64,000 nucleotides of DNA from Candidatus Levybacteria bacterium RIFCSPLOWO2_02_FULL_37_18 (GTDB lineage: Bacteria > Patescibacteriota > Microgenomatia > Levybacterales > UBA12049). The stretch covers positions 7,520 to 71,519 of the forward strand of contig MFPD01000009.1 in assembly GCA_001784115.1 (NCBI GenBank), written 5' to 3'. Shown piece by piece: positions 19,754 through 59,295 of the stretch. The number at the start of each line of letters is the position of its first letter. Within the stretch, counting starts at the first letter, position 1. The notes under the pieces were generated by a model that did not search any database, was not told where the DNA came from, and saw nothing but the letters and a program-made list of their open reading frames with translations. A program made the translations under genes and the position numbers.

Positions 19754-20463
19754 TACTCTGCTGTTGCTTCGGGACCTTTATTGTGGAAAGCGGCAATAAA
19801 TTCTTTAATTTTTTCCTTATCAAGACTTTCTAATTTCTCTATTTTCCCCCAAGCAGTTACGGCAATAGGAGCGTCTAAATTTAGACGAGGAACAATAATA
19901 AGCCGCTTCCAATCTTTTAAGAAACTCGATAATTCAGAAACCAGTTTTTTACACTCGTTGGAAGAAAATGAACTGGGTAATTCTACTTCTTTTGCTGGAG
20001 GATTCTCTGGCGTAAATGCACTCATGGTTGGATCTTTTAACTCAATGTTCATCCTATGCAGTGGTGCAGCTGACTCTGTTGCAGTAGGATTGTTTTGAAC
20101 ATCTTCTCCTTCATGAGCATAAGCATTTGAAATTGGAAATTTGAAATTGGAAATTTGAAATTTCTTTTCGCAATTATAAGAAATTACAACGTATCCATGC
20201 TCCAAAGAATGAATTAAGTATCCATCTGATAAAACCCTATCATACACTCCCGGTTTTGCCCAGATGGGAAAATGTTTCCCGGACGTCGGCGGGTTTGAAT
20301 TATATTTTATACCTGAAATATCCGAAACATGATCTCGACCTATATCGGAAATCGCTTGTCCTGGAAGCGGTTTATTCGACTCAGTTATTGCCCACCACAA
20401 AATTCCTACAATGAAGAGAATACCTACAACACTTGCTATAATTATTTTACTACTCGTTTTCAA
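19753..20463 (-). CDS. DUF3105-family membrane-anchored protein with an in-frame GAAATTTGAAATT repeat insertion
   Basis: PPTSGKHFPIWAKPGVY, SLEHGYVVISYNC, RLIIVPR, IAVTAWG. The segment EKKFQISNFKFPISNAYAHE is encoded by the 20110-20170 repeat. Confidence 0.6.
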   Translation of the reverse strand: MKTSSKIIIASVVGILFIVGILWWAITESNKPLPGQAISDIGRDHVSDISGIKYNSNPPTSGKHFPIWAKPGVYDRVLSDGYLIHSLEHGYVVISYNCEKKFQISNFKFPISNAYAHEGEDVQNNPTATESAAPLHRMNIELKDPTMSAFTPENPPAKEVELPSSFSSNECKKLVSELSSFLKDWKRLIIVPRLNLDAPIAVTAWGKIEKLESLDKEKIKEFIAAFHNKGPEATAE

Positions 20464-20699
20464 TTTTGAATTTTCAATTTTGAATTTTCAATTTCTTTTG
20501 CATCATACCCTACCCTTTTTATTATTGCAATAATATGTTTGGGAGAAATTTTTTGCGGGTCGAAAGCAACTTCTGTTTGTTGTCTGGCATAGCTGGTGTT
20601 TGAACTGAATACTCCTTGGGTATCCTCCAATTCCCCATCGATATTCATCGAACAACTGACACAGTGCATACCGATAATGTTTAAATTAATTTTATTCAT
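20460..20699 (-). CDS. copZ: heavy-metal-associated copper chaperone (CopZ-like)
   Basis: GMHCVSC metal-binding motif. The C-terminal tail EIENSKLKIQN is encoded by the word repeat. Confidence 0.75.
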   Translation of the reverse strand: MNKINLNIIGMHCVSCSMNIDGELEDTQGVFSSNTSYARQQTEVAFDPQKISPKHIIAIIKRVGYDAKEIENSKLKIQN

Positions 20700-20758
20700 A
20701 TATGAACAACTTTTAATTTCGAGCTATAGTTTTGAGTTTTGCCTTTTGAGTTTTGAGT

Positions 20759-21805
20759 TTATATGACGCGGATGCGTCCTTTGTACATCCCCATTCCGCA
20801 CATAAACGCGATTTCTGTAGTATTTGTTGGCGCAGTAAACTGTACTGTGTCAGAATTTCCAGGCGTAACTATCTTTTGAATTCCGAGTGTTGGAATGGTA
20901 AATGCCTGTGCGCATCCTCCTCCGCCGTTATTTACTAAATGTAATGTCACTGTCGAACCGGACTTAACCGCAAAATCATTCGGCGAATACCCGTCCGATC
21001 TAATAGTAATCGTTACATCGGAAACCGCAGAACCTTCAACTCTATTTTGAGCAAACGCCAAAGAATCACTACAAAATGTAATCGAGCAATATACGTCTTT
21101 TGCCAGTGAGTCTAACGTAATTGTACTTCCCGATAAAGCAAGTACATTATTAATGTTAAAAACTGTCAGAAGCATGATTGAGTATGCGGCAATTTTGGCA
21201 AATTGATGCGCAAACACCTCTCCAAGTCGCGTTGTAAAATACCCAAGGAGAAAAAATACAGGCGTTGTCCCAAGGGTAAAAGCAAACAAAATCAGAGCTC
21301 CTGTGATTGGACTGCCGCTGGCAATAGAAAGTGCCATCATGGCTTGCGTTGTTCCGCATGGAATAAAAACAGTAAATACACCCAAAAGTGCCGGCGCAAA
21401 CAAACCGGAACTTCTCGATTCTTTTCTGACAAAACGAGTAAGCAACCGCGGGGGTTGAATAACAAAGTACCGGAAAATTGGATGAACATGGAGCAAATTA
21501 AGCGCAGTCCCAACCATAAAAATTGCAACCGTAATCTGCAGAATTACCTGAGTCTTTAAAGAAAGCTGGAAAAACGAACCCAGATACCCTAATAAAAATC
21601 CAAGAATCGTATAGCTTATAAGCTTAGCTGCTAAAAATGAGACTATGGGAAGTGCGTGTCCTCCTGATTTTGTTTTTTCAACCAACTTTTCTTGCGTTCT
21701 CTGGGCAATTGTAGATGCCAAAAGCCCGCCCTGGATTGCCATACACGTCAAACCGCCTGTAAACAAACCGGTCAAAAACGCGGAAACAAATGGCAGATTA
21801 TTCAT
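20759..21805 (-). CDS. polytopic membrane protein (DsbD_2/CcdA-like TM region) fused to a C-terminal cupredoxin-like domain
   Basis: TM region with FIPCGTTQAM. The C-terminus VTITIRSDGYSPNDFAVKSGSTVTLHLVNNGG...FTAPTNTTEIAFMCGMGMYKGRIRVI resembles the Cupredoxin_1 family. Confidence 0.55.
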   Translation of the reverse strand: MNNLPFVSAFLTGLFTGGLTCMAIQGGLLASTIAQRTQEKLVEKTKSGGHALPIVSFLAAKLISYTILGFLLGYLGSFFQLSLKTQVILQITVAIFMVGTALNLLHVHPIFRYFVIQPPRLLTRFVRKESRSSGLFAPALLGVFTVFIPCGTTQAMMALSIASGSPITGALILFAFTLGTTPVFFLLGYFTTRLGEVFAHQFAKIAAYSIMLLTVFNINNVLALSGSTITLDSLAKDVYCSITFCSDSLAFAQNRVEGSAVSDVTITIRSDGYSPNDFAVKSGSTVTLHLVNNGGGGCAQAFTIPTLGIQKIVTPGNSDTVQFTAPTNTTEIAFMCGMGMYKGRIRVI

Positions 21806-21826
21806 ACGTTTAATTCAACAGCTTAT

Positions 21827-21909
21827 CGTCATTGCGAGGAGCTTGCGACGAAGTAATCTAATCCAATTTCAGAGATTGCTTCTCCCGCTGAGCGGGATCG
21901 CAATGACAA
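21827..21909. repeat. GTCAT-family palindromic element (cgtcattgcgaggagcttgcgacgaag...cccgctgagcggg...cgcaatgaca)
   Basis: inverted termini; lies between copA and the downstream gene. Confidence 0.7.
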
Positions 21910-21915
21910 TTGCGA

Positions 21916-24393
21916 TTATATTTTAATCCTTACTCTCTTTAATTGCAATGAGTTTAAGACTACGGAGATAGAACTCATTGCCATAGCAGCTGATGCAAAA
22001 ATCGGGTTCATAAGAATATTAAAAAATGGATACAGTGCGCCCATGGCAACGGGAATAAGGATAATGTTGTATCCAAATGCCCAAAACAGATTAAGTTTTA
22101 TTGTCCACATTGTTTTTTTAGACAACTCAATTGCGGTGGCAACAGATCGCAGATCTTTATTAATTAACGTTATATCTGCCGCCTCAATTGCCACATCTGT
22201 CCCCGTCCCCATTGCAATTCCAACATCTGCTGCTGCCAAAGCCGGAGCGTCATTAATGCCATCACCTATCATCGCAACGACATGTCGTTGCTTGGAATTT
22301 CCAATTTCCAATTTCCAATTTCCAATCATCAAATTTGTTGATTTGTTGATTTGTTGATTTGACATTTGTAATTCTCTAACGATCTTTTCTTTTTCCTGAG
22401 GCAGTACTTCCGCATACACCTTTTCAATCTCCACTTGTTTTGCGATTGCTTCTGCGGTCCTTTTATTATCTCCCGTTATCATAACCGGTTCTATTCTCAT
22501 CTTTTTGAGAACCACTACTGCCTCTTTTGCAGAATCTTTAATTGTATCTGCAACCGCAATTAAACCTGCTAATTCTCCATTTACCCCTAACATCATTACT
22601 GTCTTCCCTTCGTTCTCCAATTCTTCAATCTTCAATCTTAAATCATCAATCTTTAGACTTTCTCTCTCCATCAATTTCCTATTCCCAAACACAACTTTTA
22701 ACTTTGAATTTTGAACTTTTAATTCTCCTTCCACTCCGTGTCCGGGTATGGCTTTAAATTGTGTAATTGGTTGAACTTTTATATTCTGTTCCTCTGCTTT
22801 TCTAATAATTGCTTCCGCTAAGGAATGTTCTGAACCCTTTTCTAGCGACGCAGTAATCTGTAGAATTTGATTAGTTAGTTGGTTAGTTCGTTTATCGTTC
22901 ACAGTAGATTTTTCTTTACTGTGAACTGTGAACTGTGAACTGTGAACTATATCCGTCACCTCTGGTTTCCCCTTAGTCAGCGTCCCTGTCTTATCAAAAA
23001 CCACTGTATTCACTCTATGCACAGTTTCCAAAGCCTCTGCATCTTTAATCAAAATTCCATTTTCTGCTCCTTTACCAGTCCCCACCATAATTGCCGTGGG
23101 AGTGGCTAGTCCCATGGCGCACGGACAGGCAATTATCAAAACCGCAATCATGTTTAAAAGCGCAAACAAAGGCGATCCAAAAATGTACCAAATAACAAAT
23201 GTCAAAATTGCAAGCATAATAACAATTGGAACAAAATACGAAGAAATCAAATCAGCCATCCTCTGGATGGGCGCTTTACTCCCCTGCGCTTCTTCAACCA
23301 GTTTTATTATCTGAGAGAGCATTGTATCTTTCCCAACTTTTGTAGCTTTATATAAAAACGTTCCGGACTTATTTATGGTAGCCCCAATTACCATATCCCC
23401 TTTTGCTTTATCAACAGGAATACTTTCTCCGGTTACCATTGATTCGTCAATTGAAGATTCTCCCTCGATAATCTGCCCATCAACCGGAATCTTCTCCCCC
23501 GGCCGAACCCGAATAACATCTTCCACCACAACTTCTTCGATCGGAATATCAACTTCAGCATACTTCTCGTCATTGCGAGGAATCCCGCAATGGCGGGATG
23601 ACGCGGCAATCCCATCCAATTTTAGAGATTGCTTTGCTCCGCTCGCAGTGACAGACGAGCGAAGCACTCGTGCAGTCCGCGCTTGGAGACCAATCAATTT
23701 TTTTATTGCCTCGGAAGTCCCAGCTTTTGCTTTTGCTTCAAAATATCTTCCCAAAATAATAAGACCAATAATAATTGTGGAGACATCAAAATACGGCTCT
23801 GGTTTTATTCCTATACGCTCGACTATAAATGGAAATAGCGTTACAAATGTTGAATAGAAAAATGCAACGGTTGTTCCCAAAACAACAAGCGTATCCATGT
23901 TCGCGTTTCTATGCCTTATAGCAAGAATTGTTGCCTTATAAAACATAAGACCTGCCCAAAACTGAACAGGAATCGCTAGTATTAGCTGAATATAAAAGTT
24001 TTGGAGAATTTGAGGAGATGTATTCATGATTCCAGGAAAACTCCCCCACACAATAAGCCCTCCTAAAAATAAACTGACAAACACTTTTTGCTTGAGCTTT
24101 TGAAGTTCTTTTTGTTTGTTCTCCGAATCCCCGCTCAGCGGGGCGAAGTGGGATTTTTCTTCCTCAAAATTCGCCTCATATCCAACAGACGAAATCGCTT
24201 TCGCAAGATCTTGTTCTGAAACTTCTGATTCCTGTTGAATCGTAGCTTTTCCGGTTGCCAAATTCACAACCGCACTACTTACTCCTGGAACTTTTTTAAG
24301 TGCCCTTTCTGTCACCCCCACACAACTCGCACAATGCATACCGCGCACTTGAAAAATGCGCTTTGTTAGTTTGTTAGTTCGCTCATCGTTCAT
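21916..24393 (-). CDS. copA: Cu+-exporting P1B-type ATPase carrying about five in-frame palindromic-repeat insertions
   Basis: N-terminal HMA GMHCASC. Conserved motifs: TGES, CPC ([12 protein letters not shown]), [17 protein letters not shown]. Repeat-derived inserts: TNKLT (N-terminus), [92 protein letters not shown]. Confidence 0.9.
23568..23653. repeat. GTCAT-family element inserted in-frame inside copA (between the actuator-domain KTARV and PIEEV motifs)
   Basis: cgtcattgcgaggaatcccgcaatggcgggatgacg...gctcgcagtgaca; translated as [31 protein letters not shown]. Confidence 0.75.
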
Positions 24394-24444
24394 CGTAAGG
24401 AATTTTTTAACGCACTGATCATACGTGCTAATTTATTACATGTT

Positions 24445-24774: not shown

Positions 24775-24820
24775 ACTAACTGCGAACTAATAACTAGTCA
24801 CGAATAACTAGAATCCTTTA

Positions 24821-27071: not shown

Positions 27072-27073
27072 AA

Positions 27074-30439: not shown

Positions 30440-31063
30440 TCATTTTGTATTACATTTATTCATTGCAGCATGCAGATCCTGCTCTAAGGCCAGTTGAATT
30501 GCCTTTGAAGTGTGAACAAGAAGCTGTTTCACTTTCGATCTATCTTGCCCAATAAAACTTCCCAACACATAATCCTCCACCCCTTTAGAATTTGAGATTT
30601 GAAATTTGAAATTTGAAATTTTTTGGGGTTTTCCTATTCCCATTCTAAATCTCCAAAACTCCCCTGTTCCTAAAGACTCTATGATTGATTCCAGCCCCCT
30701 ATGCCCTGCCGTCCCTCCCCCAAATCGAATTCTTAAAGTCCCAAGAGGTAAATCTATATCATCGTGTATAATCCAAATATCCGAACTATGAACTGAGAAC
30801 TGTGAACTAATAACTGATACTGCCATTCCCGAGTTATTCATATATGTCTTTGGTTTGGCAAGAATCACTTTCTCCAAACTACCATGATGAGGTTGCCATT
30901 CAAGCTCGGCAATATCGCTTTTGAATTTAACAGAATTTTCCCATTCTGTTTTTCTTTCCGGTTCAAAATCCTTTAAGAATTTCTCAACTGCCATAAAACC
31001 AATATTATGTCGTGTTTTTTCGTACTTAGAACCAGGATTCCCTAATCCAACAATCAACTTCAT
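30440..31063 (-). CDS. pth: peptidyl-tRNA hydrolase with repeat-derived segments
   Basis: MKLIVGLGNPGSKYEKTRHNIGF, catalytic His, LRIRFGGGTAGHRGL. ISNFKFQISN is inserted relative to E. coli Pth, encoded by 30590-30640. SSQFSVHSSD is encoded by the GTGAAC words at 30780-30830. Confidence 0.8.
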   Translation of the reverse strand: MKLIVGLGNPGSKYEKTRHNIGFMAVEKFLKDFEPERKTEWENSVKFKSDIAELEWQPHHGSLEKVILAKPKTYMNNSGMAVSVISSQFSVHSSDIWIIHDDIDLPLGTLRIRFGGGTAGHRGLESIIESLGTGEFWRFRMGIGKPQKISNFKFQISNSKGVEDYVLGSFIGQDRSKVKQLLVHTSKAIQLALEQDLHAAMNKCNTK

Positions 31064-31706: not shown

Positions 31707-31805
31707 CTTAGTTAATTTTTAATTCGAAATTTGTAATTTTTAATCAATTTATAATGTTTTAATTTTTAAACATTTAGTTTTGATTTCAAATTTAAAATTA
31801 AAAAT

Positions 31806-33248
31806 TTAAAATTCTATTCCCAGCTGTTCTTTCTTTTCTGTTTCTCTTCTTGATACCTCTGATACTTTTGAATCCTTTGATATCTCTTCGTGTTTCCATA
31901 TCTTTACTTTTCCATACTCTCCGTCAAACCCGGGATCAATGACAATATCGCCTTTTCTAACTAACAGAATTCCATGGGCAATTTTACTGCCGCCAATCTT
32001 AGATATATCTTCTATTGGAACTTTTAGAAGAATCTCTATCTCAGAACCCAATTCCAAAGTTAATTGTTTATACAACCCTTTAGTTTTAACACTAAAAACA
32101 GTTGACTCTAAGCTTTCTGCAACAATCTCCAAGAGCGGGACGAGTTTTACAAACGGCGGATGATTCTTTCGTTTATCCGTATACCATTTTATCTCCCTCG
32201 GGCTGATTTTTACTTCGAGCCTGTCGAGAAGTTCTTTATCGCATAACTGTTGAACGCGAAATAGAACTCCTTCTGTTAATCTTCTCTTGCAAATAGGACA
32301 TATATCTCCTTCTTTTTTTAATTCCTCCGGCCCTCTGACTACCCCGCAATTCCTATGTCCGGAAAAATGATATTTCCCTTCCTCGGGATAGAATTCAACT
32401 GTGTATTTAATCCTATTGTCATTGCGAGGAGCTTGCGACGTGGCAATCCCCTCTGGATTAGATTGCTTCGCTCCGCTCGCAATGACGGGGCGCTGAACTT
32501 TCTTTCTCATTATCGCTCTTCTGATATTTTCATAACTTGCTTCTGCAAGTTCAAATACCGTTGCCTCACGCCCCATTTTGGGTAATGAATGTGCATCAGA
32601 AAAGGATAGGATCGAACGATTCATAAGCTCTGGAATCTGCCAGTTCATTTCCGGATCCGATGAAAGCCCTGTCTCGATTCCATAAATACATGGAGTAAGG
32701 TCTTCGAATGCTTCTTCCAATGAATCATAACCAGAAGCCGATCCATAAATCCCAAAGTGAGGCGTCCAGGCATGACAGGGAATAAGCATACACCGCTCGT
32801 CTATTTCTAAGATCAATTGAAAAAGATTTTTTGAGGAAATACCAATTATCGGCCTTCCGTCAGCAGATAAATTTGCTCCTCGTTTTAATAATTCTTTTTG
32901 GATTTTTTCTGCTATTTCTAAATTCGGCGCGAAAACCAAATTATGAATTCTTCTTAGCTTCCCTTTTTCAGAATAAATCGAACTTATTTCTGTAGATAAA
33001 ATAAACAACGGTTCTTTTGTTTCGGATTTCGGATTTCGGATTTCGGATTTGAGGCAATAGAGTCCTTCTGTTGCCTCCTCCAACTGAGCTCGTATTTCCT
33101 TAAGCCAAAGAGTATGCGTCCAATCGCTTGCCGTTAAAATATCGAGTCCTTTTTGCTGAGCAGCTTTGGCCATTTGGGGAAGATCCATGTCTTTTGATAC
33201 AGCACGGGAATATTTGGAGTGTAAGTGGAAATCTGCAACGTAATCCAT
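31806..33248 (-). CDS. PHP-domain (polymerase/histidinol-phosphatase fold) protein with two in-frame repeat insertions
   Basis: N-terminal DFHLHSKYS. LKSEIRNPKSETK is encoded by the (TTCGGA)n repeat at 33020-33050. VIASGAKQSNPEGIATSQAPRNDNR is encoded by the GTCAT element at 32419-32487. Confidence 0.65.
   Translation of the reverse strand: MDYVADFHLHSKYSRAVSKDMDLPQMAKAAQQKGLDILTASDWTHTLWLKEIRAQLEEATEGLYCLKSEIRNPKSETKEPLFILSTEISSIYSEKGKLRRIHNLVFAPNLEIAEKIQKELLKRGANLSADGRPIIGISSKNLFQLILEIDERCMLIPCHAWTPHFGIYGSASGYDSLEEAFEDLTPCIYGIETGLSSDPEMNWQIPELMNRSILSFSDAHSLPKMGREATVFELAEASYENIRRAIMRKKVQRPVIASGAKQSNPEGIATSQAPRNDNRIKYTVEFYPEEGKYHFSGHRNCGVVRGPEELKKEGDICPICKRRLTEGVLFRVQQLCDKELLDRLEVKISPREIKWYTDKRKNHPPFVKLVPLLEIVAESLESTVFSVKTKGLYKQLTLELGSEIEILLKVPIEDISKIGGSKIAHGILLVRKGDIVIDPGFDGEYGKVKIWKHEEISKDSKVSEVSRRETEKKEQLGIEF
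32419..32487. repeat. GTCAT-family element inserted in-frame in the PHP-domain gene
   Basis: gtcattgcgaggagcttgcgacgtggcaatcc...cgctccgctcgcaatgac. Confidence 0.75.
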
Positions 33249-34072: not shown

Positions 34073-34155
34073 TGTCATGCTGAATTTATTTCACCGAGTC
34101 AGACTCGGTTTCAGCATCTCCATTTTATAGATTCTGAATCAAGTTCAGAATGACA
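34073..34155. repeat. GTCAT-family composite palindromic element (gtcatgctgaa...ccgagtcagactcgg...ttcagcatc...ttcagaatgacat)
   Basis: nested hairpins, intergenic. Confidence 0.65.
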
Positions 34156-34378: not shown

Positions 34379-36217
34379 TTAAGCTAAAACTCTATACTTC
34401 TTCCCCTGCTGCTGGTACATCTTAATTAACTCTTCGACAGTTGTGGCATCTTCTGCCCTGCGGTCGGAGGTTCGAAAGGAAACTAAGCGCGGAAAGCGGA
34501 GTGCATAACCCGATTCTTTTTCGCCCGTTGAACTAACTGAGACGCCGGCTGTATGAATTGGACTTCGGGTAATTTCGTCCGCCAAAACTTCAATAACAAT
34601 CTTTGGCTCTACCCATTGAGTCGGCTCTATCAAAGAACAAACTCGTGCCGGCTTACTTTTCACTTTTAACTTTTCACTTTTAACTTTTATTTCCCGCCAT
34701 TCTTCATCAGATAATCCCGTACCGATTTTAGAAACGCTTACAAACATATCCTTTTTTTTATCATACACCCCTACCAATAGCGCTCCTGCCCCAAATGCAG
34801 TCCGCTTTCCTTTCCCGGAAATATATCCTAAAATCACACAATCAATTGTGTCTTGGAGCTCTCCTGCGCTGTGTCGCTTTAATTTTACCCAGTTAAAATT
34901 CCGTCCGCCTGCTTCGTACAAACTATCAAGTCTCTTTATTACTACCCCTTCCAAACCTTTAGAAATTGCATCTTCCAACAAAAGCCCTAGTTTTTTTGGA
35001 TCCGAAACAGTATAATTTTTAGACGGGATAAGAACCCCATCTTCACGAATGGTTTCCTTTAAAATTTTTATTCGTTCTTCCAAAGGATTGTCTATTAAAG
35101 ACTCACCGTTTTTATACAAAATGTCAAAGACAAATGCTTTAAGAGGCAACTTTTTTGCCATTTCTTCAATACCATGCTTTCGCCTCCGTTTGGTAGTTTC
35201 CTGAAAAGGCAAAAATTCTTCGGATTCCACATTATATGCTAAAGCTTCGGTATCTAAAATCGCGGTTTTTGCTTTTACTTGAACTCTTGTTGCCTCGATT
35301 AATTCAGGAAACATATGTGTCATATTTTCTAAATTGCGCGAGAACATCTTCACCTCATCTTGACCTACGAGGTTTTGTGCGTTCAGCCCCGTAGGTCTAC
35401 GATCCAAGTGTATTTGAACTCTGAATCCATCGTATTTATACTGCACGTCAACAGTACCCATTTTTTCAATAGCTTTTTCTGGTGTGGGGAGTCGTTCACA
35501 GAGTTCCGAACGAATTGGTTTGCCGACGGCAACTTTGAGATGTTCGACTGCACCAATTCCATGTTCAAATAATGTCTTTGCAATCAATCCAAGATCCGAC
35601 GTACGATTATAAGCTCCCTCCAACAATTTCCGTTTGCTTTTGTTTCCCAATTTAGCCATTGCCAGACCGTCAAGAATCGTCGGGTCTCCAATTCCCAAAC
35701 GAAGATTTCCCAAAGGAATTCTGACAATAAATTTAGCTGATTTCTCGTCTGCCTTTTGTAAAAGCTGGCATAAAAGGGTTATTCGTTTCTCAACCGTCCC
35801 CTCCCCGCTTGTTTTTGCAATTTCTGTCATAATTTCGAACACACTTAAAACTGTCATTATGGCTTGTCCAGAATCCGTCTTCTTAGAGATTCTGGAGTCG
35901 CTACACTCCCCAGAATGACGATCGATTAGTTGCTCCGCAACTAATCCCATATCTCCCTTTTTTTGATAAAGCTTTAAAACTTCATCTTTTGTTACTCCAT
36001 AAGCAAGAGCAATTGCCTGCGCAACTGTTTTGTCAGCCATTCCGATTTCAAAAGAAGAAAAAAACGGCGCAATTCGGCCTTGGGTTAGATATACCACCTG
36101 CTCTATTTCTTTATTTGAACAATGTTTAAACAACTCTGAAAGTATATCTATCAGAGCAAGTCTCGAAGAAGTCGCTTCCAATTTCTCAAAATACTCACTA
36201 AGCTTTGAAAACGTCAT
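34379..36217 (-). CDS. ATP-dependent DNA ligase with an in-frame AAAAGTGAAAAGTTAAAAGT word insertion
   Basis: Adenylation motif KYDGFRVQIH. SEKLKVKSKPAR is encoded by the 34653-34695 repeat. Confidence 0.75.
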   Translation of the reverse strand: MTFSKLSEYFEKLEATSSRLALIDILSELFKHCSNKEIEQVVYLTQGRIAPFFSSFEIGMADKTVAQAIALAYGVTKDEVLKLYQKKGDMGLVAEQLIDRHSGECSDSRISKKTDSGQAIMTVLSVFEIMTEIAKTSGEGTVEKRITLLCQLLQKADEKSAKFIVRIPLGNLRLGIGDPTILDGLAMAKLGNKSKRKLLEGAYNRTSDLGLIAKTLFEHGIGAVEHLKVAVGKPIRSELCERLPTPEKAIEKMGTVDVQYKYDGFRVQIHLDRRPTGLNAQNLVGQDEVKMFSRNLENMTHMFPELIEATRVQVKAKTAILDTEALAYNVESEEFLPFQETTKRRRKHGIEEMAKKLPLKAFVFDILYKNGESLIDNPLEERIKILKETIREDGVLIPSKNYTVSDPKKLGLLLEDAISKGLEGVVIKRLDSLYEAGGRNFNWVKLKRHSAGELQDTIDCVILGYISGKGKRTAFGAGALLVGVYDKKKDMFVSVSKIGTGLSDEEWREIKVKSEKLKVKSKPARVCSLIEPTQWVEPKIVIEVLADEITRSPIHTAGVSVSSTGEKESGYALRFPRLVSFRTSDRRAEDATTVEELIKMYQQQGKKYRVLA

Positions 36218-42377: not shown

Positions 42378-42419
42378 TACGTGTAATAGTATCACACAAC
42401 CTGACAAAAAAACAACAAA

Positions 42420-45240: not shown

Positions 45241-46311
45241 TTACAATAACCCCAACTGTTTATCCTCCGAAGCCTTCGGCGAAGGAGGACTCTTCTCTTG
45301 TTTCTTGTTACTTGTCTCTTGCTGCTTTGAAACTCGTTTCAAAAGGCTATTGAATCCCAATTCCTCAAAAAACTCCTTTGCCTTATTTACGTCAAAACCT
45401 TTTATATTACACTTTTCTATATCTAACCGAATAGGGGCATCGCAGACAACAGTGGCTAGTTTTTTAGCTAAACTTGCTTGCTCTGTATCGGTTGCCAAAC
45501 GCTCTGAAATTTTGGGAGGCAGTTCTCCTAAGTTTTTATACAGATTTTCAAATGTTTTATATTTCTTAAGCAAATTACTTGCAGTCTTTGGCCCAATGCC
45601 AGCAACCCCAGGATAATTATCCGAAGCATCCCCTACTAGTGCTTTGTAATCTACAATCTGCGAAGGTTTAACTCCATACTTCTCCTCCACCTTCTGCTCA
45701 TCATACAAAACAGTATTTGTTAATCCTACTATTGGCGCTAACACTCGAACATGAGAGTTAACTAGTTGCAACAAATCCCGATCCCCTGAGACAATAATCA
45801 CCTCCAGAGGACTGAGGACAGAGGATGGAAAACTGATAGCAGATAAAACAGAAGAAACAGAATCTGTCTTATCTGTAATTTCTGTTTTTCCGCTGTCTGT
45901 CCTGCCTGCCGGCAGGCAGGTCTTCTGTATTCTGTATTCTGTATTCTGAAAAGCCTGAAAAGCTAATGTCCCAATCAAATCATCCGCCTCATACCCGTCT
46001 AATTCAAAAATCGAAACCCCCATTTTTTCTAAGGCATCGTGAACCAAAATAATCTGGGGCACAAAATCATCTGCCAGTTTTGGCCTGGTTGCGTGATACC
46101 CAACGTACATTTCTTGCCGAAATGTTGGTTTTGCCCTGTCAAAACACACGGCAATGTGCGCTGGTTTTAAGTCTTCGATAATTTTTAAAAACATGGAGAA
46201 AAACCCATAGACGGCGCTTACTACTTCTCCAGATGAACTGGTTAGAGGAGGCAAGGCATGATACGCCCTGTGAAGTATTGCGTTGCCGTCAATTAATATA
46301 AATCTTTCCAT
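45241..46311 (-). CDS. 5'-3' exonuclease (Pol I N-terminal / FEN-like domain only) with a ~130-bp in-frame CAGAATACAGAA / CCTGCCTGCCGGCAGGCAGG insertion
   Basis: MERFILIDGNAILHRAYHAL, ...GYEADDLIGTLA, VSGDRDLLQL. The insert NTEYRIQKTCLPAGRTDSGKTEITDKTDSVSSVLSAISFPSSVLSP is encoded by 45810-45960. The C-terminus ASEDKQLGLL derives from the hairpin cctccgaagccttcggcgaaggagg. Confidence 0.75.
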   Translation of the reverse strand: MERFILIDGNAILHRAYHALPPLTSSSGEVVSAVYGFFSMFLKIIEDLKPAHIAVCFDRAKPTFRQEMYVGYHATRPKLADDFVPQIILVHDALEKMGVSIFELDGYEADDLIGTLAFQAFQNTEYRIQKTCLPAGRTDSGKTEITDKTDSVSSVLSAISFPSSVLSPLEVIIVSGDRDLLQLVNSHVRVLAPIVGLTNTVLYDEQKVEEKYGVKPSQIVDYKALVGDASDNYPGVAGIGPKTASNLLKKYKTFENLYKNLGELPPKISERLATDTEQASLAKKLATVVCDAPIRLDIEKCNIKGFDVNKAKEFFEELGFNSLLKRVSKQQETSNKKQEKSPPSPKASEDKQLGLL

Positions 46312-48009: not shown

Positions 48010-48107
48010 TATCAGTATTCCACAAAAAAATGGAGTTTGTCAAATGGTTTATGTCATTGTGAATGGCCTTTAGCCCTATGGCAATCTTTTATTCATCTTA
48101 GATTGCT

Positions 48108-49997
48108 TCACTTAGTTCGCAATGACGGTGAGCGGGAATTCTGTGCTTTTGCAAGAGCAAGAGCTTTTCCTTCCTTTGGCCCGATGAGTTTTATAAAGTC
48201 ATCGGATTCTATAGTTTCTCTTTTCAATAGTTCGGCGGCTAGTAAATCAAGTTTATCTCGAAGCTTTGATAAAACCGACGCTGCATTTTTATAACACATA
48301 TCAGTAATTTTTTTCACTTGCCCGTCGATTTTTGCTGCCATTTCGTCAGAAACATGCTGTTGTTCGTAATACATTCGTCTGTCAGATGCTTCCAAATTTA
48401 AAGGTCCAAGCTCACTCATACCGTATTCGACTACCATCATTCTCGCAACTTGAGAAGCTTTGGCAATATCATCGGATGCGCCTGTTGTCATTTCGGCAAA
48501 CACAAGTTGCTCTGCTGCTCTTCCGCCAAGCATAACAGCTACCTGCTCGAGTAGGTGCGTTTTAGTCTCGTGTACTCTTTCGATTTGCTCCATCATGGTA
48601 TGACCCAACGAAAGCCCCCTGCTCACAATTGAAATGCGGTGAACAGGATCAACATGAGGCATGTACCACGAAACCAACGCGTGTCCTGCCTCGTGATACG
48701 CAGTCATTTTTCTGTCCGCGTCTGATTGTAACCTCTTTTTTTCCGGACCTAATTTGACCTTTGTCGCTGCTTCTTCCAAATCTCTCATGTCGATAAACTT
48801 CTTATTGAGTCTCGCTGCTAAAATTGCAGCTTCGTTTAACATGTTTTCTAAATCAGCTCCCGAAAACCCAACAGTCCTTTTTGCAGCTTTCTCCCAATCA
48901 ACATCCGGGGCAAATGGCTTCCCTTGGGCATGAATATTCAAGATTGCTTTTCTTCCGACAACATCCGGCATATCCAAAGCAATTCTCCTGTCAAACCGTC
49001 CCGGTCGAATAAGTGCAGGATCGAGGACGTCAGGACGGTTTGTAGCTGCCATTACTATAAGTTGTTCGTTGGGGGTAAATCCATCCATTTCAACAAGAAT
49101 CTGGTTAAGCGTTTGTTCGCGCTCGTCATGTCCACCCATTAAGCCTACTCCGCGCTGTCTGCCGATTGCGTCAATTTCGTCGATAAAAATAATCGCTGGT
49201 TGAGCCTTTTTAGCGGTAGAAAAGAGGTCGCGAACCCTTGAGGCCCCGACACCTACCAACATTTCCATAAATTCAGATCCAGCCATTGAAAAAAATGTAA
49301 CTCCGGCTTCTCCTGCCGTACTGCGGGCCAAAAGGGTTTTTCCTGTTCCAGATGGGCCAATCATTAAAACTCCTTTTGGGGTTCGTGCTCCCATGGCTTT
49401 GTATTTTGCCGGATTTTTAAGAAAATCAACAATTTCTGTCAGCTCCTGTTTTGCCTCATCCACTCCTGCCACATCTGCAAACGTAACTTTTGGGCTGTCC
49501 TTGCTAAATAATTTTGCCCTCGACTGGCCAAAACTAAAAATATTTTCTTGCGCACCTCTGGCCTGCCGAAAAATAAAATAAAAAAACGCAATCATCAAAA
49601 CAACCGGCAAAATTGAAGATATAAGATTAATCCAATTCGTAACGCCTGATTCGTCTTTTACCACAACTTTGGTTTTTTCTAAAGATACTCCCGCGTCTTT
49701 AAAGAGTTGGTAGACATTAGAACCTACTTCTTTATTTGTATGAAGTGTTGCTCCCCGCTTGGTAGTAACGCTAATTTTGTTATCAACAATAGTAATCTGG
49801 GAAATCTCATCTTTTTTTACACTTTCGATTATTTCGGAAATCGGCACTGTTTTTCGATCTTCTAAAGGAGCGCTTAATCCAACCAAAAGAAAAAGGCTAA
49901 AGAGGAGTAAAAAACCGTATAATAAAATATTTTTCCAGGAGAGATTAAATTTAAACTTAACTATTTTTCGCTTATGCTTTTTCCCATTCGTAGCCAT
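48108..49997 (-). CDS. ftsH: ATP-dependent zinc metalloprotease FtsH. Its last ~7 codons are supplied by a half GTCAT element.
   Basis: Walker [15 protein letters not shown] region, HEAGHAL zinc site. The C-terminus SPSLRTK is encoded by tcaccgtcattgcgaactaag (48099-48128). Confidence 0.9.
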
Positions 49998-50008: not shown

Positions 50009-50045
50009 TGTCATTCTGAGTCATTCTGAACTTGATTCAGAATCT
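50009..50045. repeat. GTCAT-family hairpin doublet (tgtcattctgagtcattctgaacttgattcagaatc)
   Basis: seen in sequence. Confidence 0.6.
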
Positions 50046-50144
50046 AATTTTTGAATTTTGAGTTAAAATTGAGTATAGCACAACTTATATTCATTTCCAA
50101 GCATTTTTATCAAAACGTAACAGTTAACTCTTCTAACACGGTCT

Positions 50145-50228
50145 TGTCATTGCGACCCCGAGTGAATCAAGGGGGAAGCAATCTCACAAGATCGCCACGG
50201 TCGCCTGAGGCGACCTCGCGATGACAGT
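50145..50228. repeat. GTCAT-family palindromic element (tgtcattgcgacc...cggtcgcctgaggcgacc...tcgcgatgaca)
   Basis: Inverted termini and a GC hairpin identical to the copy at 6122-6201. Confidence 0.7.
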
Positions 50229-52689: not shown

Positions 52690-52830
52690 TTTCGTAACAG
52701 GTCACAGTTCTAACATAAAACTGTCATTCTGAGACTGAAAGCAGAAGAATCTTTTACCGAATAGATCCTTTACTACGCTCAGGATGACGAGATCGTGTCG
52801 GAAGCGTGAACAGTTACAGTTCTTAGACAA
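52690..52830. repeat. ~140-bp GTCAT-containing repeat unit (direct-repeat partner of 54765-54995)
   Basis: atcacagttctaacataaaactgtcattctgagactgaaagcagaagaatcttttaccgaatagatcctttactacgctcaggatgacgagatcgtgtcggaagcgtgaacagttac. Confidence 0.7.
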
Positions 52831-54738: not shown

Positions 54739-54764
54739 AACTCTTGATATTGTATCATAGTAAC

Positions 54765-54995
54765 AGATCACAGTTCTAACATAAAACTGTCATTCTGAGA
54801 CTGGAAACAGAAGAGTCTTTTACCGAATAGATCCTTTACTACGCCGAGTCTGACTCGGCTACGCTCAGGATGACGAGATCGTGTCGGAAGCGTGAACAGT
54901 TACAACATTGAAGTTATTGTTCGAGGCTACAAGCCGAGAACTACAAACACTGGAAACTTCTCGCTACGCCACGTCTGACGTGGCTACGCTCGAAG
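54765..54995. repeat. GTCAT-family repeat unit, a second copy of 52690-52830 with an extra nested hairpin (ccgagtctgactcgg) and a 3' extension carrying ctacgccacgtctgacgtggctacgc
   Basis: About 95% identity over the shared ~120 bp, and a 17-bp hairpin insertion. Confidence 0.7.
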
Positions 54996-55079
54996 AATAA
55001 AGTTTGTGTTAGAAGAGTAAACTGTTACGTAAATTCTTACCAAATTTTTTTAAGGTATTGTGATACAATAATAATCTTC

Positions 55080-56339: not shown

Positions 56340-57767
56340 TTACCACACCCACTCTTTTTTCATCTTACTAAACTCTCCTTCCATAATTGCTTCTCTGATT
56401 TTTTTAACCAGATGCACAATAAAATACATATTATGATAACTTGCCAACCGATATGCGAGGAGTTCGTTTGCTTTGAATACATGGTTAACATAGCCTCGCG
56501 TGAACTGCTTACACACCTTACACTCGCAGTCTTTAGAAAGCGGTTGGTTACTTCTTACATAGATACTTCTATTTATATCGAGCCGAAACCTACCTTTTGC
56601 TTCTGATTCCCATGGAGGGACAAACACAATGCCGTACCGGCCAAAGCGCGTTGGAATCACACAATCAAACGTATCCATCCCACATTCTATTGCCGAAAAA
56701 ATATCATCAATTTCTCCAATACCTAATAAATGCCTGGGTTTTTCTTCGGGAAGAAACGGATGCACCCAGGAAAGAACGTCCCGCATTTCTTTTTTCGTTT
56801 CTCCAACCGAAACTCCCCCAATTGCAATTCCATCAAACGGAAGCGAACTGATAAACTTCGCCGACTCTTCCCGAAAATCTTTGCATACACCACCTTGAAC
56901 AATACCGTAAAGCGCTTGCTCTCTTCCCGTGTCATGCCGAACTTGTTTCGGCATCTCCTCACCGGCACTAGTAGATACCGAAACGCCTTGCCTGCTGACA
57001 GGCAGGAGTTCAGGATGACAGCGATAGAATTCAGCTAGTGATCTCTCCGCCCACTTATGCGTCCGCTCCATCGCCTCTTTTGTGTATTCACGTGTAGAAG
57101 GATACGGCGCGCATTCATCAAAACACAAAATAATATCTGCTCCTAATTTTTTTTGGATTTGAATAGATAGTTCTGGAGTAAGCTCGTGTAATGAACCATC
57201 AATATGAGATCTAAAAACAACTTTGTCGTTGGTAATCTTAACAAGAGAAGGATTTTTATCTATAGAGGATTCCTGATCATTCCCAGGAGAACTGAAAGTC
57301 GGCCTTGTATTTTTCTGAGTATTTTCATCCGGTGGCCGACTTTCACTTAGTGAGGACGGGAAAAAGTTTATAATTTTTTCAAAAGGTTGCCGAACGTCTC
57401 CTGAGGCATGCGTCAGGAATCCGCCGCCCCTTGCAGCAATTCTTTTTGCCAACGAAAAGACCTGAAACCCACCGCTGTCTGTTATAGTCGGCCCATACCA
57501 ATTCATAAACTTTCCCAAACCTCCGAATTCCTGTACCACGTCTTCTCCAGGACGCAAATGCAAATGATATGTATTGCCAAAGAGTAATTCAACACCAATT
57601 TCTCTAAGTTCGTCAGGGCTTAATCCCTTTACTGTTGCCTGTGTCCCAACCGCAACAAAAGCAGGAGTCTCAATATCACCATGAGGAGTATGAATCTGAC
57701 CAACCCGCGCTTTTGTTTTAGAATCTTTTGATATAACTTTAAATGAAAATGAACTATTTTTCTTCAT
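56340..57767 (-). CDS. tgt: queuine tRNA-ribosyltransferase with two long in-frame palindromic insertions
   Basis: DSGGFQVFSL; Zn site CxCxxC...H (CECKVCKQFTRGYVNH). The ~75-aa insert ...PSSLSESRPPDENTQKNTRPTFSSPGN is encoded by the palindrome GAAAGTCGGCC...GGCCGACTTTC at 57295-57345. VSRQGVSVSTSAG is encoded by CCTTGCCTGCTGACAGGCAGG at 56993-57013. Confidence 0.8.
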   Translation of the reverse strand: MKKNSSFSFKVISKDSKTKARVGQIHTPHGDIETPAFVAVGTQATVKGLSPDELREIGVELLFGNTYHLHLRPGEDVVQEFGGLGKFMNWYGPTITDSGGFQVFSLAKRIAARGGGFLTHASGDVRQPFEKIINFFPSSLSESRPPDENTQKNTRPTFSSPGNDQESSIDKNPSLVKITNDKVVFRSHIDGSLHELTPELSIQIQKKLGADIILCFDECAPYPSTREYTKEAMERTHKWAERSLAEFYRCHPELLPVSRQGVSVSTSAGEEMPKQVRHDTGREQALYGIVQGGVCKDFREESAKFISSLPFDGIAIGGVSVGETKKEMRDVLSWVHPFLPEEKPRHLLGIGEIDDIFSAIECGMDTFDCVIPTRFGRYGIVFVPPWESEAKGRFRLDINRSIYVRSNQPLSKDCECKVCKQFTRGYVNHVFKANELLAYRLASYHNMYFIVHLVKKIREAIMEGEFSKMKKEWVW

Positions 57768-57774
57768 GCAAACT

Positions 57775-57860
57775 CTAAATTCTAAATCCTAAATTCTAAA
57801 TAATTACAAAATTCAAAAAAGTGAGTTTTGGATTTAAGAATTGTGATTTATTTAGAAATT
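57775..57860. repeat. AT-rich CTAAATTCTAAATCCTAAAT...ATTTAGAAATTAGGATTTTAG palindromic element, related to the 23S IVS copies
   Basis: Shares the ctaaatcctaaat / atttagaatttag words with 9801-9968 and 11140-11298. Confidence 0.55.
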
Positions 57861-59295
57861 AGGATTTTAGTTTAAGAACTTCGTTCTTAAACTGTTCTCC
57901 TCTCACTTTATAATTCGGGAACATGTCAAAGCTTGAACATGCCGGAGAAAGAAGTACTACGTCTCCCGGCTCTGCAATTTTAGAAGCAGTTGTCACAATC
58001 GTCTTCATATCCTTAGCTCCCTCGATCATATACTTAATATTTGATACATGATACTTAATACTTTCTTTTATCCGTGGCCATTCAAGACCAATTCCTATAA
58101 TTGCTTTTATATTTTTTTTAGAACTGATAACTCGACCAAGTTCTGTAAAGTCCGAACCTTTATGCGCTCCGCCTAAAATTAAAATCTCGGGTTCTTTAAA
58201 CGCTTCTATTGCCGCAATAGCAGTTTCCGGAGTTGTAGAAAAAGAATCGTCATAATATTTTACTCCTCCAACTTCTCCAACCAATTCCAATCGGTGTTCT
58301 AATCCCCTAAATTCTCTAAGAACACTCACTATTGCTTTTGTCGACACTCCCGCAAGTTTAGCTGCCATCACTGCCGCACATACATTTTCCCAGTTGTATT
58401 TACCAAGCAGCAAAATATCCCTAGTATCTATAATTTCGACTTCAGAAAACTCAGAAGACTCAGTGGACCGGTAATTCAGAGATGTCTGATTATCAGAATT
58501 TCTGAGCTTCTGATTTACTGATGTGCCGAGTTTTCCGAGTATTCTGAGAATAACTTTTCCATTCCTCACAAAACAACCTTCTTCACATTCTCTTTCACGA
58601 CTAACTTGATATATTCTCCCCTTTGTGTGAGTATCTGATTCGTGCGTTGCAGGATAGTCTCTATTTAAAATGGCAAAGTCATCTTTGGTTTGAAACCGAA
58701 GAATGTTTCGTTTGGAATTAACATACTCTTCGAGACTCTCGTGATAATTTTGATCTGCCAGTTCTTTCTTGTCTGGCGCCAAATGTTCTTGTGTCACCAT
58801 AAGTATTACTGCAATATGCGGGCTTTTTGTAAGGTCTTCAAGCTGGTAACTGGAGAGTTCTAACACTACTTTTGAATGAGCATTTAGTGTGTCCAAAAAT
58901 TCAAATGGAGGCCTACCAATATTACCACCTATATAAGCATCAAAGCCTTGTTTTTTACACATTTCATAGATTAAAGCAGCTGTTGTCCCCTTTCCTTTTG
59001 TTCCAGTGATACCAATAATAGGACAAGGACATAAATCAAAAAAAAGTTTGGTTTGAGAGGTAATTGCTACTTCTTTTTGTTTGGCTTGAACAATTTGGGG
59101 TAGATTTCTCTTAATTCCTGGTGATCTGATCATCATGTCATACCCCTTAAGGTTCTTCAAGTAATCTTTCCCCTGATTTTGATCAAGACCGGTAACCTCT
59201 GCACCATGTTTTTTAAGATATGCTATACTTGATAATCCCTCTATCCCCATCCCAATTACCGCAATTTTTTTATCTTTTAAGTCAATCATATTCAT
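57859..59295 (-). CDS. murD: UDP-N-acetylmuramoylalanine--D-glutamate ligase with an in-frame TCAGAA-word palindromic insertion
   Basis: GITGTKGKGTT P-loop, DSFSTTPET. The insert TSVNQKLRNSDNQTSLNYRSTESSEFSEVEIID is encoded by 58441-58555. Confidence 0.8.
   Translation of the reverse strand: MNMIDLKDKKIAVIGMGIEGLSSIAYLKKHGAEVTGLDQNQGKDYLKNLKGYDMMIRSPGIKRNLPQIVQAKQKEVAITSQTKLFFDLCPCPIIGITGTKGKGTTAALIYEMCKKQGFDAYIGGNIGRPPFEFLDTLNAHSKVVLELSSYQLEDLTKSPHIAVILMVTQEHLAPDKKELADQNYHESLEEYVNSKRNILRFQTKDDFAILNRDYPATHESDTHTKGRIYQVSRERECEEGCFVRNGKVILRILGKLGTSVNQKLRNSDNQTSLNYRSTESSEFSEVEIIDTRDILLLGKYNWENVCAAVMAAKLAGVSTKAIVSVLREFRGLEHRLELVGEVGGVKYYDDSFSTTPETAIAAIEAFKEPEILILGGAHKGSDFTELGRVISSKKNIKAIIGIGLEWPRIKESIKYHVSNIKYMIEGAKDMKTIVTTASKIAEPGDVVLLSPACSSFDMFPNYKVRGEQFKNEVLKLKS

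Follow-up and report, generated by a model that had tools for sequence, protein, structure and literature searches.

A 64-kb window on one contig (MFPD01000009.1) of the metagenome-assembled genome (MAG) of Candidatus Levybacteria bacterium RIFCSPLOWO2_02_FULL_37_18, a member of the candidate phyla radiation (CPR), carries two kinds of short repeat that run through conserved protein-coding genes: hairpin-forming palindromes that resemble repetitive extragenic palindromes (REPs), and tandem arrays of heptanucleotides. By the window we mean this whole stretch, and all coordinates are counted from its first letter. We located 22 repeat-derived segments in 14 conserved genes. None of them holds an in-frame stop codon, a count that is partly built in by the procedure used to find open reading frames (ORFs), compared with 30 of 110 (27%) of the other frames being open. 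In our judgement these are probably selfish or mutational repeats of a non-coding kind that operate at the DNA level, and purifying selection on the host genes leaves only those copies that can be tolerated.

The window was compared with 80 syntenic loci from other Microgenomates (1.385 Mb in total; PHP protein at most 60% identical), which are cited by L numbers where they must be told apart. Arrays were detected with Tandem Repeats Finder and with one strict score applied alike to all periods, and Markov shuffles served as the control. For the other elements we used direct-repeat and pattern searches, folding with z-scores, and a blind scan of 100-nt windows for stable structure. The regular expression for palindromes with terminal inverted repeats (TIRs) was derived from the window copies, and other REP variants escape the scan of the related loci. 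Insertions were called from aligned orthologues, from solved PDB structures (Tgt, MurD) and from an AlphaFold model (CopA). Pfam identified DUF3105, CopA, a 23S rRNA intervening-sequence protein (IVP) with a four-helix bundle, Pth, PHP/MJ0043_C, an ATP-dependent ligase, Fic, Nnr, GT4, a 5'-3' exonuclease, FtsH, Tgt and MurD, in agreement with the gene names in an earlier interpretation made from the letters and their translations (the sequence-only reading). The putative copZ, a 79-aa ORF at 20460-20699, was assigned from an MHCxxC metal-binding motif in its translation rather than by Pfam. An NCBI contig, MFOP01000009.1 of assembly GCA_001782445.1, carries the Pth protein of the window. All host ORFs are full length, and conserved catalytic motifs flank the inserts on both sides.

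Repeats split none of the window's genes, and all 22 segments are stop-free in the frame used, just as the sequence-only reading had stated for the copies inside genes. Some arrays carry variants that avoid stops: in the ligase array at 34652..34690, G and T alternate at unit position 7, exactly where an in-frame TGA would fall. Outside long ORFs, 20 of 50 arrays (40%) have stops on both strands. Because all segments are in frame and stop-free and arrays carry stop-avoiding variants, the intragenic segments appear to be translated, and these same features argue against bypassing or excision. REP-type elements are about 8-fold rarer in annotated genes (0.13/kb) than in spacers (about 1.0/kb). 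The three TIR copies that lie fully within genes measure 84, 69 and 186 nt, all multiples of three, whereas five of the other seven (74, 81, 80, 74, 80, 66 and 86 nt; six in spacers and one straddling the FtsH stop codon) are not. The in-frame state is best explained by selection. Of the two routes offered in the sequence-only reading, selection against frame-breaking copies accords with these results, and no sign of a mechanism favouring in-frame acceptance was seen in the window copies or in the comparisons.

The palindromes are assembled from (C/T)GTCATT...AATGAC(G/A) units, which also form inverted dimers and nested versions, and they range from 26 to 190 nt. Ten of them are bounded by GTCATTGCGAG-like inverted termini (GTCATTGCGAG...CTCGCAATGAC) and share these 11-12-nt termini together with internal modules. 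Their construction is modular, with a tag and stem, an inner GCGAAGCAATC module, a loop and the mirror image, and nesting is possible, as in the 186-nt nnr element. The shorter 26-nt hairpin units, GTCATTCYGAAC..TTCAGAAT, are present as five aligned copies and a sixth in the spacer at 34120-34154. Twelve regions were folded first, and nine of them reached z-scores between -3 and -14 on one strand or both. Folds were weaker (z about -2.5 to -2.8) for the PHP palindrome and for the 31705-31825 spacer, and the MurD array at 58000-58090 gave no significant fold. Of seven regions added to these, six scored -3 to -6, the exception being the REP-type element of the ligase gene (z = -0.8). The blind scan recovered the CopA, PHP, ligase, Nnr, GT4, exonuclease, FtsH, Tgt and MurD elements. 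The repeats described in the sequence-only reading are real, with an excess of period 7 over other periods and shuffles and with both the GTCATTGCGAG...CTCGCAATGAC palindromes and the 26-nt hairpins located where it placed them. Its word families are not all unrelated: on folding, many words proved to pair with each other as opposite arms of a long imperfect hairpin, and the palindromes form a single CGTC/TGTC-tagged superfamily.

The TIR palindrome family is very widespread outside CPR. Among the matches listed, more than 120 IMG/VR contigs, viral or uncultivated, contain the pattern GTCATTGCGAG-N40-70-CTCGCAATGAC exactly, and contigs with the palindrome have a mean GC content of about 0.6. 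In 141 exact IMG/VR copies among the matches listed, the ends are crisp at YGTCAT...ATGACR, the flanks are random, and the base at position -1 is C in 65% of copies and T in 31%. The TIRs recall MITEs (miniature inverted-repeat transposable elements), and no target-site duplication of 2-8 nt was seen in these 141 listed copies. In the related loci we counted 9 TIR palindromes in 1.385 Mb, compared with 10 in the 64-kb window. Our literature search found no paper naming this family or its sequence. An additional mini-palindrome of 20 nt, CCTGCCTGCCGGCAGGCAGG, lies within arrays of the exonuclease gene (45902-45919) and of the rRNA locus (7968-7985). It or close variants are found in at least eight other genomes, including L021, L027, L033, L048, L071 and L073, where it is often embedded in heptamer arrays (the Pth array of L021, for example), and in proteins it is read as LPAGRQ.

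The second class of repeat is defined by its period. At the strict score the window has 14 period-7 arrays (14-16 overall), whereas periods 3-6, 9 and 10 yielded no array, nor did the Markov shuffles; Tandem Repeats Finder agreed, reporting dozens of period-7 arrays of ~4-5 copies each. The related loci hold 154 period-7 arrays versus 5, 20 and 15 at periods 6, 8 and 9, at a patchy density of 0 to 8 per 10 kb, and period-7 arrays are a trait of the wider clade. Many genomes of the same clade, L020, L022 and L023 among them, have no array at all in the syntenic 21 kb. The 170 arrays fall into 93 different canonical units. Inside ORFs as well as outside them, the lengths of arrays show a sharp maximum at 31-35 nt (4-5 units), and 71% of arrays lie within ORFs of at least 150 aa, compared with 82% of random positions. 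A complementary partner lies within 150 nt of 52% of the arrays outside ORFs and of only 8% of those inside.

At gene sites that match the window arrays, arrays were present in 46 of 389 orthologous segments from Microgenomates versus 25 of 2041 control sites. The units at such sites are related or different from genome to genome: the array in the Pth loop uses AAATTTC, AAAAATC, AGAATTC or GAAATTC. Likewise, a period-7 array stands directly 3' of the ligase stop codon in five genomes, with a different unit in each (L017 7558, L029 4597, L031 3658, L045 1030, L039 3419), and some of these arrays vary one position serially, as in ATAGCGT AAAGCGT CAAGCGT GAAGCGT TAAG. The array segments are not ordinary conserved sequence, because they keep their period and position but exchange the sequence of the unit. 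The same segments are shared with sister lineages in part, namely for arrays of the ligase (L003/L018), GT4 (L008) and DUF3105 (L028) genes; to that extent the sequence-only reading, which named sharing of this kind as something that would refute it, is weakened. Two other interpretations of the period were rejected, namely sites for -1 frameshifting (AAATTTC fits X XXY YYZ; most units do not fit) and coiled-coil heptads (the period is 7 nt rather than 21 nt).

True insertions of 4-65 aa were established in CopA, the PHP protein, the ligase, Nnr, the exonuclease, Tgt and MurD, and the copA gene (minus strand, as are all genes described in this and the following two paragraphs) illustrates both repeat classes. 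Relative to orthologues, CopA has insertions of 31, 17, 24 and 4 aa. The 31-aa insertion (VTASGAKQS...PRNDEKY) is an 84-nt TIR palindrome at 23560..23652 that sits in a beta-hairpin turn and is absent in 12 of 12 syntenic orthologues. About 17 aa are inserted by a composite at 22870..22948 consisting of an AGTTCAC array of 4.4 units, a 10-bp hairpin and an AACTAAC-type array, and 24 aa are inserted at 22282..22353 by an 8-mer array and a GGAAATT array of 4.4 units. Two weaker heptamer arrays lie at 22618..22722, of which one changes no length and the other (KVQNSKLKV) adds about 4 aa. In the AlphaFold model of CopA (120 homologues), the sole long stretches with a predicted local distance difference test (pLDDT) score below 50 and no secondary structure are residues 248-276, 495-498 and 681-700. 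These are the three large inserts, residues 681-700 belonging to the one at 22282..22353, and they are placed between regular elements. The model therefore supports for CopA the proposal of the sequence-only reading that the extra residues form surface loops. In other homologues the same loops hold unrelated repeat peptides, one loop being occupied in 60 of 120, and peptides such as VIASEAKQS... are present in dozens of CopA homologues. An identical CopA, inserts included, is carried by 19 contigs of several assemblies and by 4 NCBI MAGs, and the matches are annotated as Candidatus Levybacteria MAGs of the Rifle aquifer series. Within its 90% cluster (6 members, 19 contigs) strain variants differ by point changes and every insert is kept, and the next CopA homologue is only 67% identical.

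Among the other palindromic inserts, the PHP-protein gene carries a 69-nt TIR palindrome (VIASGAKQS...APRND; 32415..32492), and the protein has about 17-25 aa inserted, plus a short insertion. At this site L004 and L005 carry other REP-type inserts, and about 13 of the 21 orthologues listed lack an insert. The nnr gene contains a nested palindrome with inner REP units, spanning 186 nt between TGTCATTGCGAGC and GCTCTCGCAACGACA (39679..39870); it inserts about 60 aa and is absent in 15 of 15 orthologues listed, which instead have short heptamer-coded loops at this position. In the exonuclease gene a composite hairpin at 45808..45951, with a TACAGAA array, CCTGCCTGCCGGCAGGCAGG and ACAGA/TCTGT arms, inserts 42 aa that are absent in 7 of 7 aligned orthologues. 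A search of related CPR genomes, proposed in the sequence-only reading, thus found empty sites for the CopA TIR palindrome, the exonuclease insert and the Nnr insert. The ligase has two insertions of 11 aa each relative to orthologues. Its gene contains a 33-nt hairpin, CCTACGGGG...CCTCGTAGG, at 35363..35395 (an 11-aa insertion; z = -4.5) and a REP-type element, CGTCATTCTGGGGAG...GCCATAATGAC (RHSGEC...SGQAIMT), at 35864..35932, whose fold by itself, as noted above, is not significant. Tgt is extended by about 65 aa at 57249..57446, where nested palindromes have the outer stem GGATTCCTGA/TCAGGAATCC (z = -4.5), and by about 30 aa at 56931..57023, from TGTCATCCTGAAC...GTTCGGCATGACA with an inner CCTGCCTGTCAGCAGGCA mini-palindrome (z = -4.1). 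In murD, a hairpin with CTCAGAA/TTCTGAG-type arms at 58438..58557 inserts about 33-40 aa. The GT4 gene has a single REP unit, TGTCATTCTGAAC TTGT TTCAGAAT (KQVQNDT), at 43638..43670 and a hairpin formed by two heptamer arrays, AAGTATT and AATACCT, at 43777..43866 that is common to L008.

The sequence-only reading held that the repeats add 8 to 75 residues and counted about 25 events. Both claims overreach with respect to the arrays, which do not represent that number of independent insertions in this genome and many of which add no length: at least 6 of the 22 segments add none or almost none. Besides the one CopA array, these are an imperfect AGTTCAC array in pth (SSQFSVHS; 30783..30812), the ligase AAAAGTK array read as KVKSEKLKVKSK, of which nearly identical DNA is present in L003 and L018, the AGTTCAC/AGTTGAC array of fic (VDSSQFTVD; 38208..38246), where orthologues have other arrays, a heptamer array of the DUF3105 gene (20122..20166), and a weak AAGTATT-type array in murD (IKYHVSNIKY; 58028..58066) that belongs to the family of the GT4 array at 43826-43865. 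The DUF3105 array consists of about 5.6 TTCAAAT/TTCCAAT units read as FQISNFKFPISN, and 5 of 8 orthologues have a period-7 array at the site. A second array at 20457..20494 covers the copZ 3' end and the DUF3105 start and supplies the last ~10 codons of CopZ (EIENSKLKIQN) and its stop codon. Additional arrays occupy the variable loop of Pth (AAATTTC, read as KISNFKFQISNSK; 30587..30625), where sister genomes have other units, and a loop of the PHP protein (TCCGAAA in 4.4 units, EIRNPKSET; 33018..33053) that holds unrelated inserts in other genomes. Inserts had been claimed for at least 15 genes; here 22 segments were located in 14 conserved genes. The N-terminal repeat of the four-helix-bundle (IVP) ORF lies upstream of the likely ATG and is probably not translated. 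ORF 24445-24774, which adjoins copA and has a 23S rRNA-intervening-sequence protein domain (PF05635, E = 7e-24), is absent among the called genes in the public record of the window.

The repeats are dispersed over genes, spacers and rRNA alike, and they also occur beyond the region covered by the sequence-only reading, at 7.2-17 kb and 59.5-60.2 kb. Composite elements are shared between these contexts. CopA 22871-22934 is 78% identical over 64 nt to the spacer sequence 16701-16764, and an element of the 23S locus at 7925-8010 (minus strand) shares about 75 nt with the exonuclease-gene insert, the two being homologous copies. Four loci have the AGTTCAC array, and a fifth copy lies a short way upstream of the IVP gene. 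Within 23S rRNA (minus strand), a hairpin with CAGAAGA/TCTTCTG arms at 12485..12645 (z = -13.8) adds about 121 nt in an apical loop, at position 583/584 of the Rfam large-subunit (LSU) model according to cmscan. The RNA genes of the window are this 23S rRNA with two group I introns (9470-9703 and 10236-10532, separate from the repeat elements), a 5S rRNA and two tRNA genes.

TIR palindromes outside coding sequence include an 80-nt copy, CGTCATTGCGAGG...CGCAATGAC, at 21828..21907 that is close in sequence to the CopA and PHP copies, an 81-nt copy at 16911-16991 that follows a nested hairpin of several arrays at 16650-16850 (together 16650..16991), and an 80-nt copy at 50146-50225 that stands with REP units at 50010 and 50020 upstream of ftsH (50010..50225). 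The 74-nt copy at the FtsH stop codon (48053..48126) provides the last residues, PSLRTK, and the stop. A single REP-like hairpin, AGATTCTGAATCAAGTTCAGAATGAC, forms the spacer copy at 34120..34154. Heptamer arrays in spacers were found just 3' of the stop codon of a DsbD_2-cupredoxin gene (20725..20760), as the arms of an AT-rich hairpin between the phosphoribosyltransferase and PHP genes (31712..31818), and as AAATTCT-type arms of a hairpin between murD and tgt (57767..57867). Lastly, a repeat of 95-125 nt containing GTCATTCTGAG...CTCAGGATGAC at 52694..52818 has a twin at 54760..54904 on the far side of orf52870 and trpS; the twins (95-145 nt) are 92-100% identical and bracket these two genes, and the region may be a small mobile or duplicated cassette. 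The Pfam-less neighbouring ORFs 50310-51170, 51199-52302 and 52870-53766 are each followed by a similar 33-nt sequence (51166, 52405 and 53762).

Several further features of the window deserve a record. In murI (minus strand), the glutamate racemase gene, a perfect palindrome of 17+17 nt without a spacer lies at 59568-59601. Its right arm encodes the conserved active-site motif ALGCTH and its left arm, KVQPNA, replaces the usual residues; comparison with B. subtilis RacE (PDB 1zuw) reveals no indel, and the palindrome has the appearance of the complementary strand copied through template switching. The Zip metal transporter at 28935-30096 (minus strand) appears as two overlapping ORFs, 28935-29747 and 29683-30096. 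We inspected the junction for an interrupting repeat and saw none, and the split is a frameshift, a sequencing error or a real two-part gene. An amino-acid-kinase ORF at 41670-42641 (minus strand) has a Cys-rich N-terminal extension of ~85 aa that is present in 0 of 28 orthologues, and its listed start is probably too far upstream. A DUF5667 protein of 1752 aa (835-6093, plus strand) has a perfect 42-nt tandem repeat in its C-terminal part (5945-6070), which as a multiple of three is an ordinary coding repeat, unlike the heptamer arrays.

The account we favour as probable combines two processes. In one, small non-autonomous CGTC/TGTC-tagged REP-like hairpins, their inverted dimers and nested derivatives, as well as CCTGCCTGCCGGCAGGCAGG, would be copied elsewhere, leaving crisp ends and no duplicated target, by an enzyme that would act in trans and be encoded outside the window. 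In the other, heptanucleotide arrays of about five units would arise and homogenise locally through slippage, template switching or ectopic conversion between arrays. Such local origin and homogenisation would let arrays overwrite existing sequence without length change, share units across loci and keep hairpin arms complementary. Copies of either kind would land or arise anywhere. Genes would keep only those with a net length that is a multiple of three and a stop-free frame, in surface loops or at termini, and rRNA only those in a tolerant apical loop. The surviving copies would be transcribed and translated as disordered loop extensions, presumably neutral for the proteins.

A number of observations weigh against this account. 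The difference in length modulo three rests on very few copies, and among 143 IMG/VR TIR palindromes (matches listed) lengths of ORF-embedded copies were not enriched for multiples of three. For these, the true insertion boundaries may differ from the TIR ends, or many ORFs may be spurious; because the contigs are GC-rich, with many spurious ORFs, and the TIR ends are possibly not insertion boundaries, this set is uninformative. A domain search found no transposase, and nothing like RAYT, the IS200-like Y1 transposase of REPIN systems, in any of the ORFs searched in the 64-kb window, no presence/absence polymorphism of inserts was seen among the strain-level CopA copies, and current mobility is therefore unproven. 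In addition, arrays are only mildly depleted in ORFs, which a pure "deleterious parasite" model would not predict. Simple slippage would give a decaying size distribution rather than a peak at 4-5 units, and neutral relics would decay, yet period and position persist among genomes with 50-60% protein identity while the unit changes. The size peak and the persistence hint at a constraint or an active process beyond the model. There is a small chance, we think, that Microgenomates have an active process common to the lineage, or a selected function, by which homogenised heptamer arrays of ~5 units are written or kept, with fixed period and length and free sequence. If that were so, the arrays would be the footprint of a new repeat-generating mechanism or binding sites for some factor, not decaying parasites, and spacers, rRNA and coding loops would be hit at defined positions, with loop DNA overwritten without length change.

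Alternatively, all of the repeats could have a purely local origin, in which slippage and quasi-palindrome template switching act on loop DNA that is free to vary, nothing transposes, and likeness between copies reflects convergence or ectopic conversion. Arrays that change no length, the murI palindrome built from a conserved motif, the 93 units among 170 arrays and the related but distinct units at orthologous sites all suit this explanation, as does the polymerase-linked slippage put forward for heptanucleotide repeats by Mrazek et al. 2007, as related in PMC4679880. We nevertheless consider it improbable, because the TIR termini and modules are the same at 10 window loci and, flanked by random sequence, in IMG/VR contigs that are unrelated and number more than 120, composites of 64-80 nt are common to a gene and a spacer or rRNA site, and clean insertions of 84, 126 and 186 nt are absent in all orthologues examined. 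We likewise doubt that the repeats are cis-elements kept for a function in DNA or RNA (stabilisation or termination of transcripts, RNase III processing, pausing in translation or binding of a lineage-specific protein) that coding sequence merely accommodates. The array length of about 31-35 nt in and out of ORFs, the retention of period and position while sequence turns over (after the ligase stop codon in five genomes, and in protein loops), and the complementary partners of 52% of spacer arrays, often right after stop codons, would fit such a role. In other bacteria, according to PMC3733652, REPs are placed after 3' ends and presumably act as RNA. However, many genomes of the clade are array-free in the 21-kb syntenic region, most orthologous sites lack the elements, only 8% of intragenic arrays have a hairpin partner, and we found no candidate binding protein and no conserved sequence beyond the period.

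It is highly unlikely that the segments are missing from the mature proteins, whether through RNA excision (intron-like, or by RNase cleavage and religation) or through ribosomal bypassing. All segments are strong hairpins, CPR genomes are intron-rich, with two group I introns in the 23S gene of this window, and the rRNA copy may well be excised. If the segments were removed, neither frame nor stops would be constrained. Yet all 22 of them keep the frame and lack stops, compared with 27% of the other frames being open, arrays carry stop-avoiding variants, no Rfam intron or ribozyme was detected at the insert sites, and no window gene is split by a repeat. Least credible of all is that the inserts are assembly chimeras, or that the host genes are pseudogenes in a degrading genome. 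The source is a MAG, short repeats can mis-assemble, and the Zip transporter looks split. Against this, the same CopA with all inserts recurs in 4 MAGs and on 19 contigs that come from several assemblies, MAGs obtained independently in other studies have comparable inserts in those loops, and every host ORF is full length, its inserts being flanked by conserved catalytic motifs.

Rickettsia palindromic elements (RPEs) are the known system to which the sequence-only reading likened the repeats; RPE-1 to RPE-10 were reportedly described by Ogata et al. in 2000 and 2002. For the palindromes the comparison is apt. Both are dispersed hairpins inserted in frame in conserved genes and read through, here apparently, as added loop residues, both also occupy spacers and RNA genes, neither has a known transposase, and in each case the bacterium is host-dependent with a reduced genome. 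Stable hairpins in multiple copies per family, with the z-scores given above, and in-frame insertions absent from orthologues (CopA, PHP, Nnr, exonuclease, Tgt, MurD, ligase) are found here as in RPEs; about 6 heptamer arrays are not insertions of this kind. The differences are the phylum (CPR/Levybacteria), the several elements per gene (4-6 sites in CopA, 3 in the ligase, 2 in Tgt), and the coexistence of palindromes with heptamer arrays, a feature that is not known from RPEs. In sequence, the link to RPEs is the CGTC tag (PMC3733652).

Di Nocera et al. 2013 (PMC3733652) treat the RPEs of Rickettsia together with REPs that bear GTAG or CGTC tags, which come from several phyla and are in part intragenic. 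According to that paper, 20-30 aa are encoded by intragenic REP dimers and 43-82 aa by clusters, the CGTC class takes in RPE-4 and RPE-6 and has no known transposase, and CGTC REPs occur in five phyla, mainly alpha-proteobacteria, with CPR not among them. REP dimers, or REPINs, are the subject of Bertels & Rainey 2011 (PMC3116915). The window copies begin CGTCATT or TGTCATT and so bear the CGTC-REP tag, a terminal CGTC (or TGTC/CCTC) that takes no part in pairing. The 26-nt family, TGTC ATTCTGAA CTTGA TTCAGAAT, has the TGTC variant of the tag and conforms to the stem of this class (8-9 bp, starting with AT, with a 4-5-nt loop), having an 8-bp stem that begins AT and a 5-nt loop. The tail of the window copies is CT/CTC versus the consensus CCA, and GCAATCCA in the IMG/VR copies listed. 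As with CGTC and GTAG REPs, inverted dimers form long hairpins, and most copies lie in spacers near gene 3' ends, one of them overlapping the FtsH stop codon, with an intragenic minority. The longer GTCATTGCGAG...CTCGCAATGAC form differs in its inner architecture, having extra inner modules (GCGAAGCAATC / GATTGCTTCGC).

Heptanucleotide repeats are also known from other bacteria. In some they predominate among long simple repeats, lie mostly between genes and have a single prevailing unit, and cyanobacterial short tandemly repeated repetitive (STRR) sequences and the TAACTGA repeats of Beggiatoaceae are dominated by one or few units per genome in 2-43 copies (MacGregor 2015, PMC4679880). The arrays described here share with them a dominant 7-nt period, over-represented in the window and in the related loci, low copy numbers, locations near start and stop codons and occasional read-through within ORFs in the orientation that lacks stops. 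They depart from them in lacking a few dominant units and a mainly intergenic location, given that 71% lie inside long ORFs and 170 arrays have 93 units, and in their tight range of 4-5 copies and their use in some cases as hairpin arms. Elhai et al. reportedly described, in Genome Research in 2008, small dispersed repeats (SDR) of Nostoc punctiforme that are inserted in heptameric tandem repeats. Those tiny palindromes (about 20-27 nt) inside heptamer arrays resemble CCTGCCTGCCGGCAGGCAGG, although the sequences and the phylum are different, and mobility of CCTGCCTGCCGGCAGGCAGG is suggested here only by its presence in at least eight genomes. Intervening sequences or expansion hairpins in helix 25 of 23S rRNA occur in Salmonella, Leptospira and others, and such intervening sequences are cut out by RNase III, which leaves the rRNA in fragments. 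The 23S hairpin of the window is likewise a long hairpin in the apical loop of a domain I/II helix, with the difference that it shares a repeat family with a protein-gene insert. Translational bypassing is exemplified by T4 gene 60 and the mitochondrial byp elements. Bypass elements interrupt the frame or contain stops, and 22 of 22 segments here do neither.

Intragenic palindromic repeats are therefore already established through RPEs and CGTC/GTAG REPs, and heptanucleotide repeats are known as well. Our literature search for MITE, palindromic or in-frame repeats of CPR/Patescibacteria found no description, and as far as we found, such a system in CPR and this density inside essential genes appear undescribed. 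The same applies to heptamer arrays whose size is fixed and whose sequence is free, which are nearly as frequent in coding as in non-coding DNA and return at orthologous loops. The fixed format of 7 nt by about five units, and its persistence, remain unexplained by selfish or mutational spread with selection on host genes. The slippage account of heptanucleotide repeats does not obviously cover a fixed period and copy number, a free sequence and a near absence of coding exclusion.

If the segments are translated, many conserved CPR proteins, CopA, Tgt, MurD, Pth, the ligase and FtsH among them, bear disordered loops encoded by repeats, and this would bear on annotation, homology modelling, protein-family clustering and length statistics for much of bacterial diversity. 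The repeat system is a natural experiment on the tolerance of proteins and rRNA to insertion, and it indicates that tiny, supposedly streamlined genomes can be riddled with selfish or mutational repeats.

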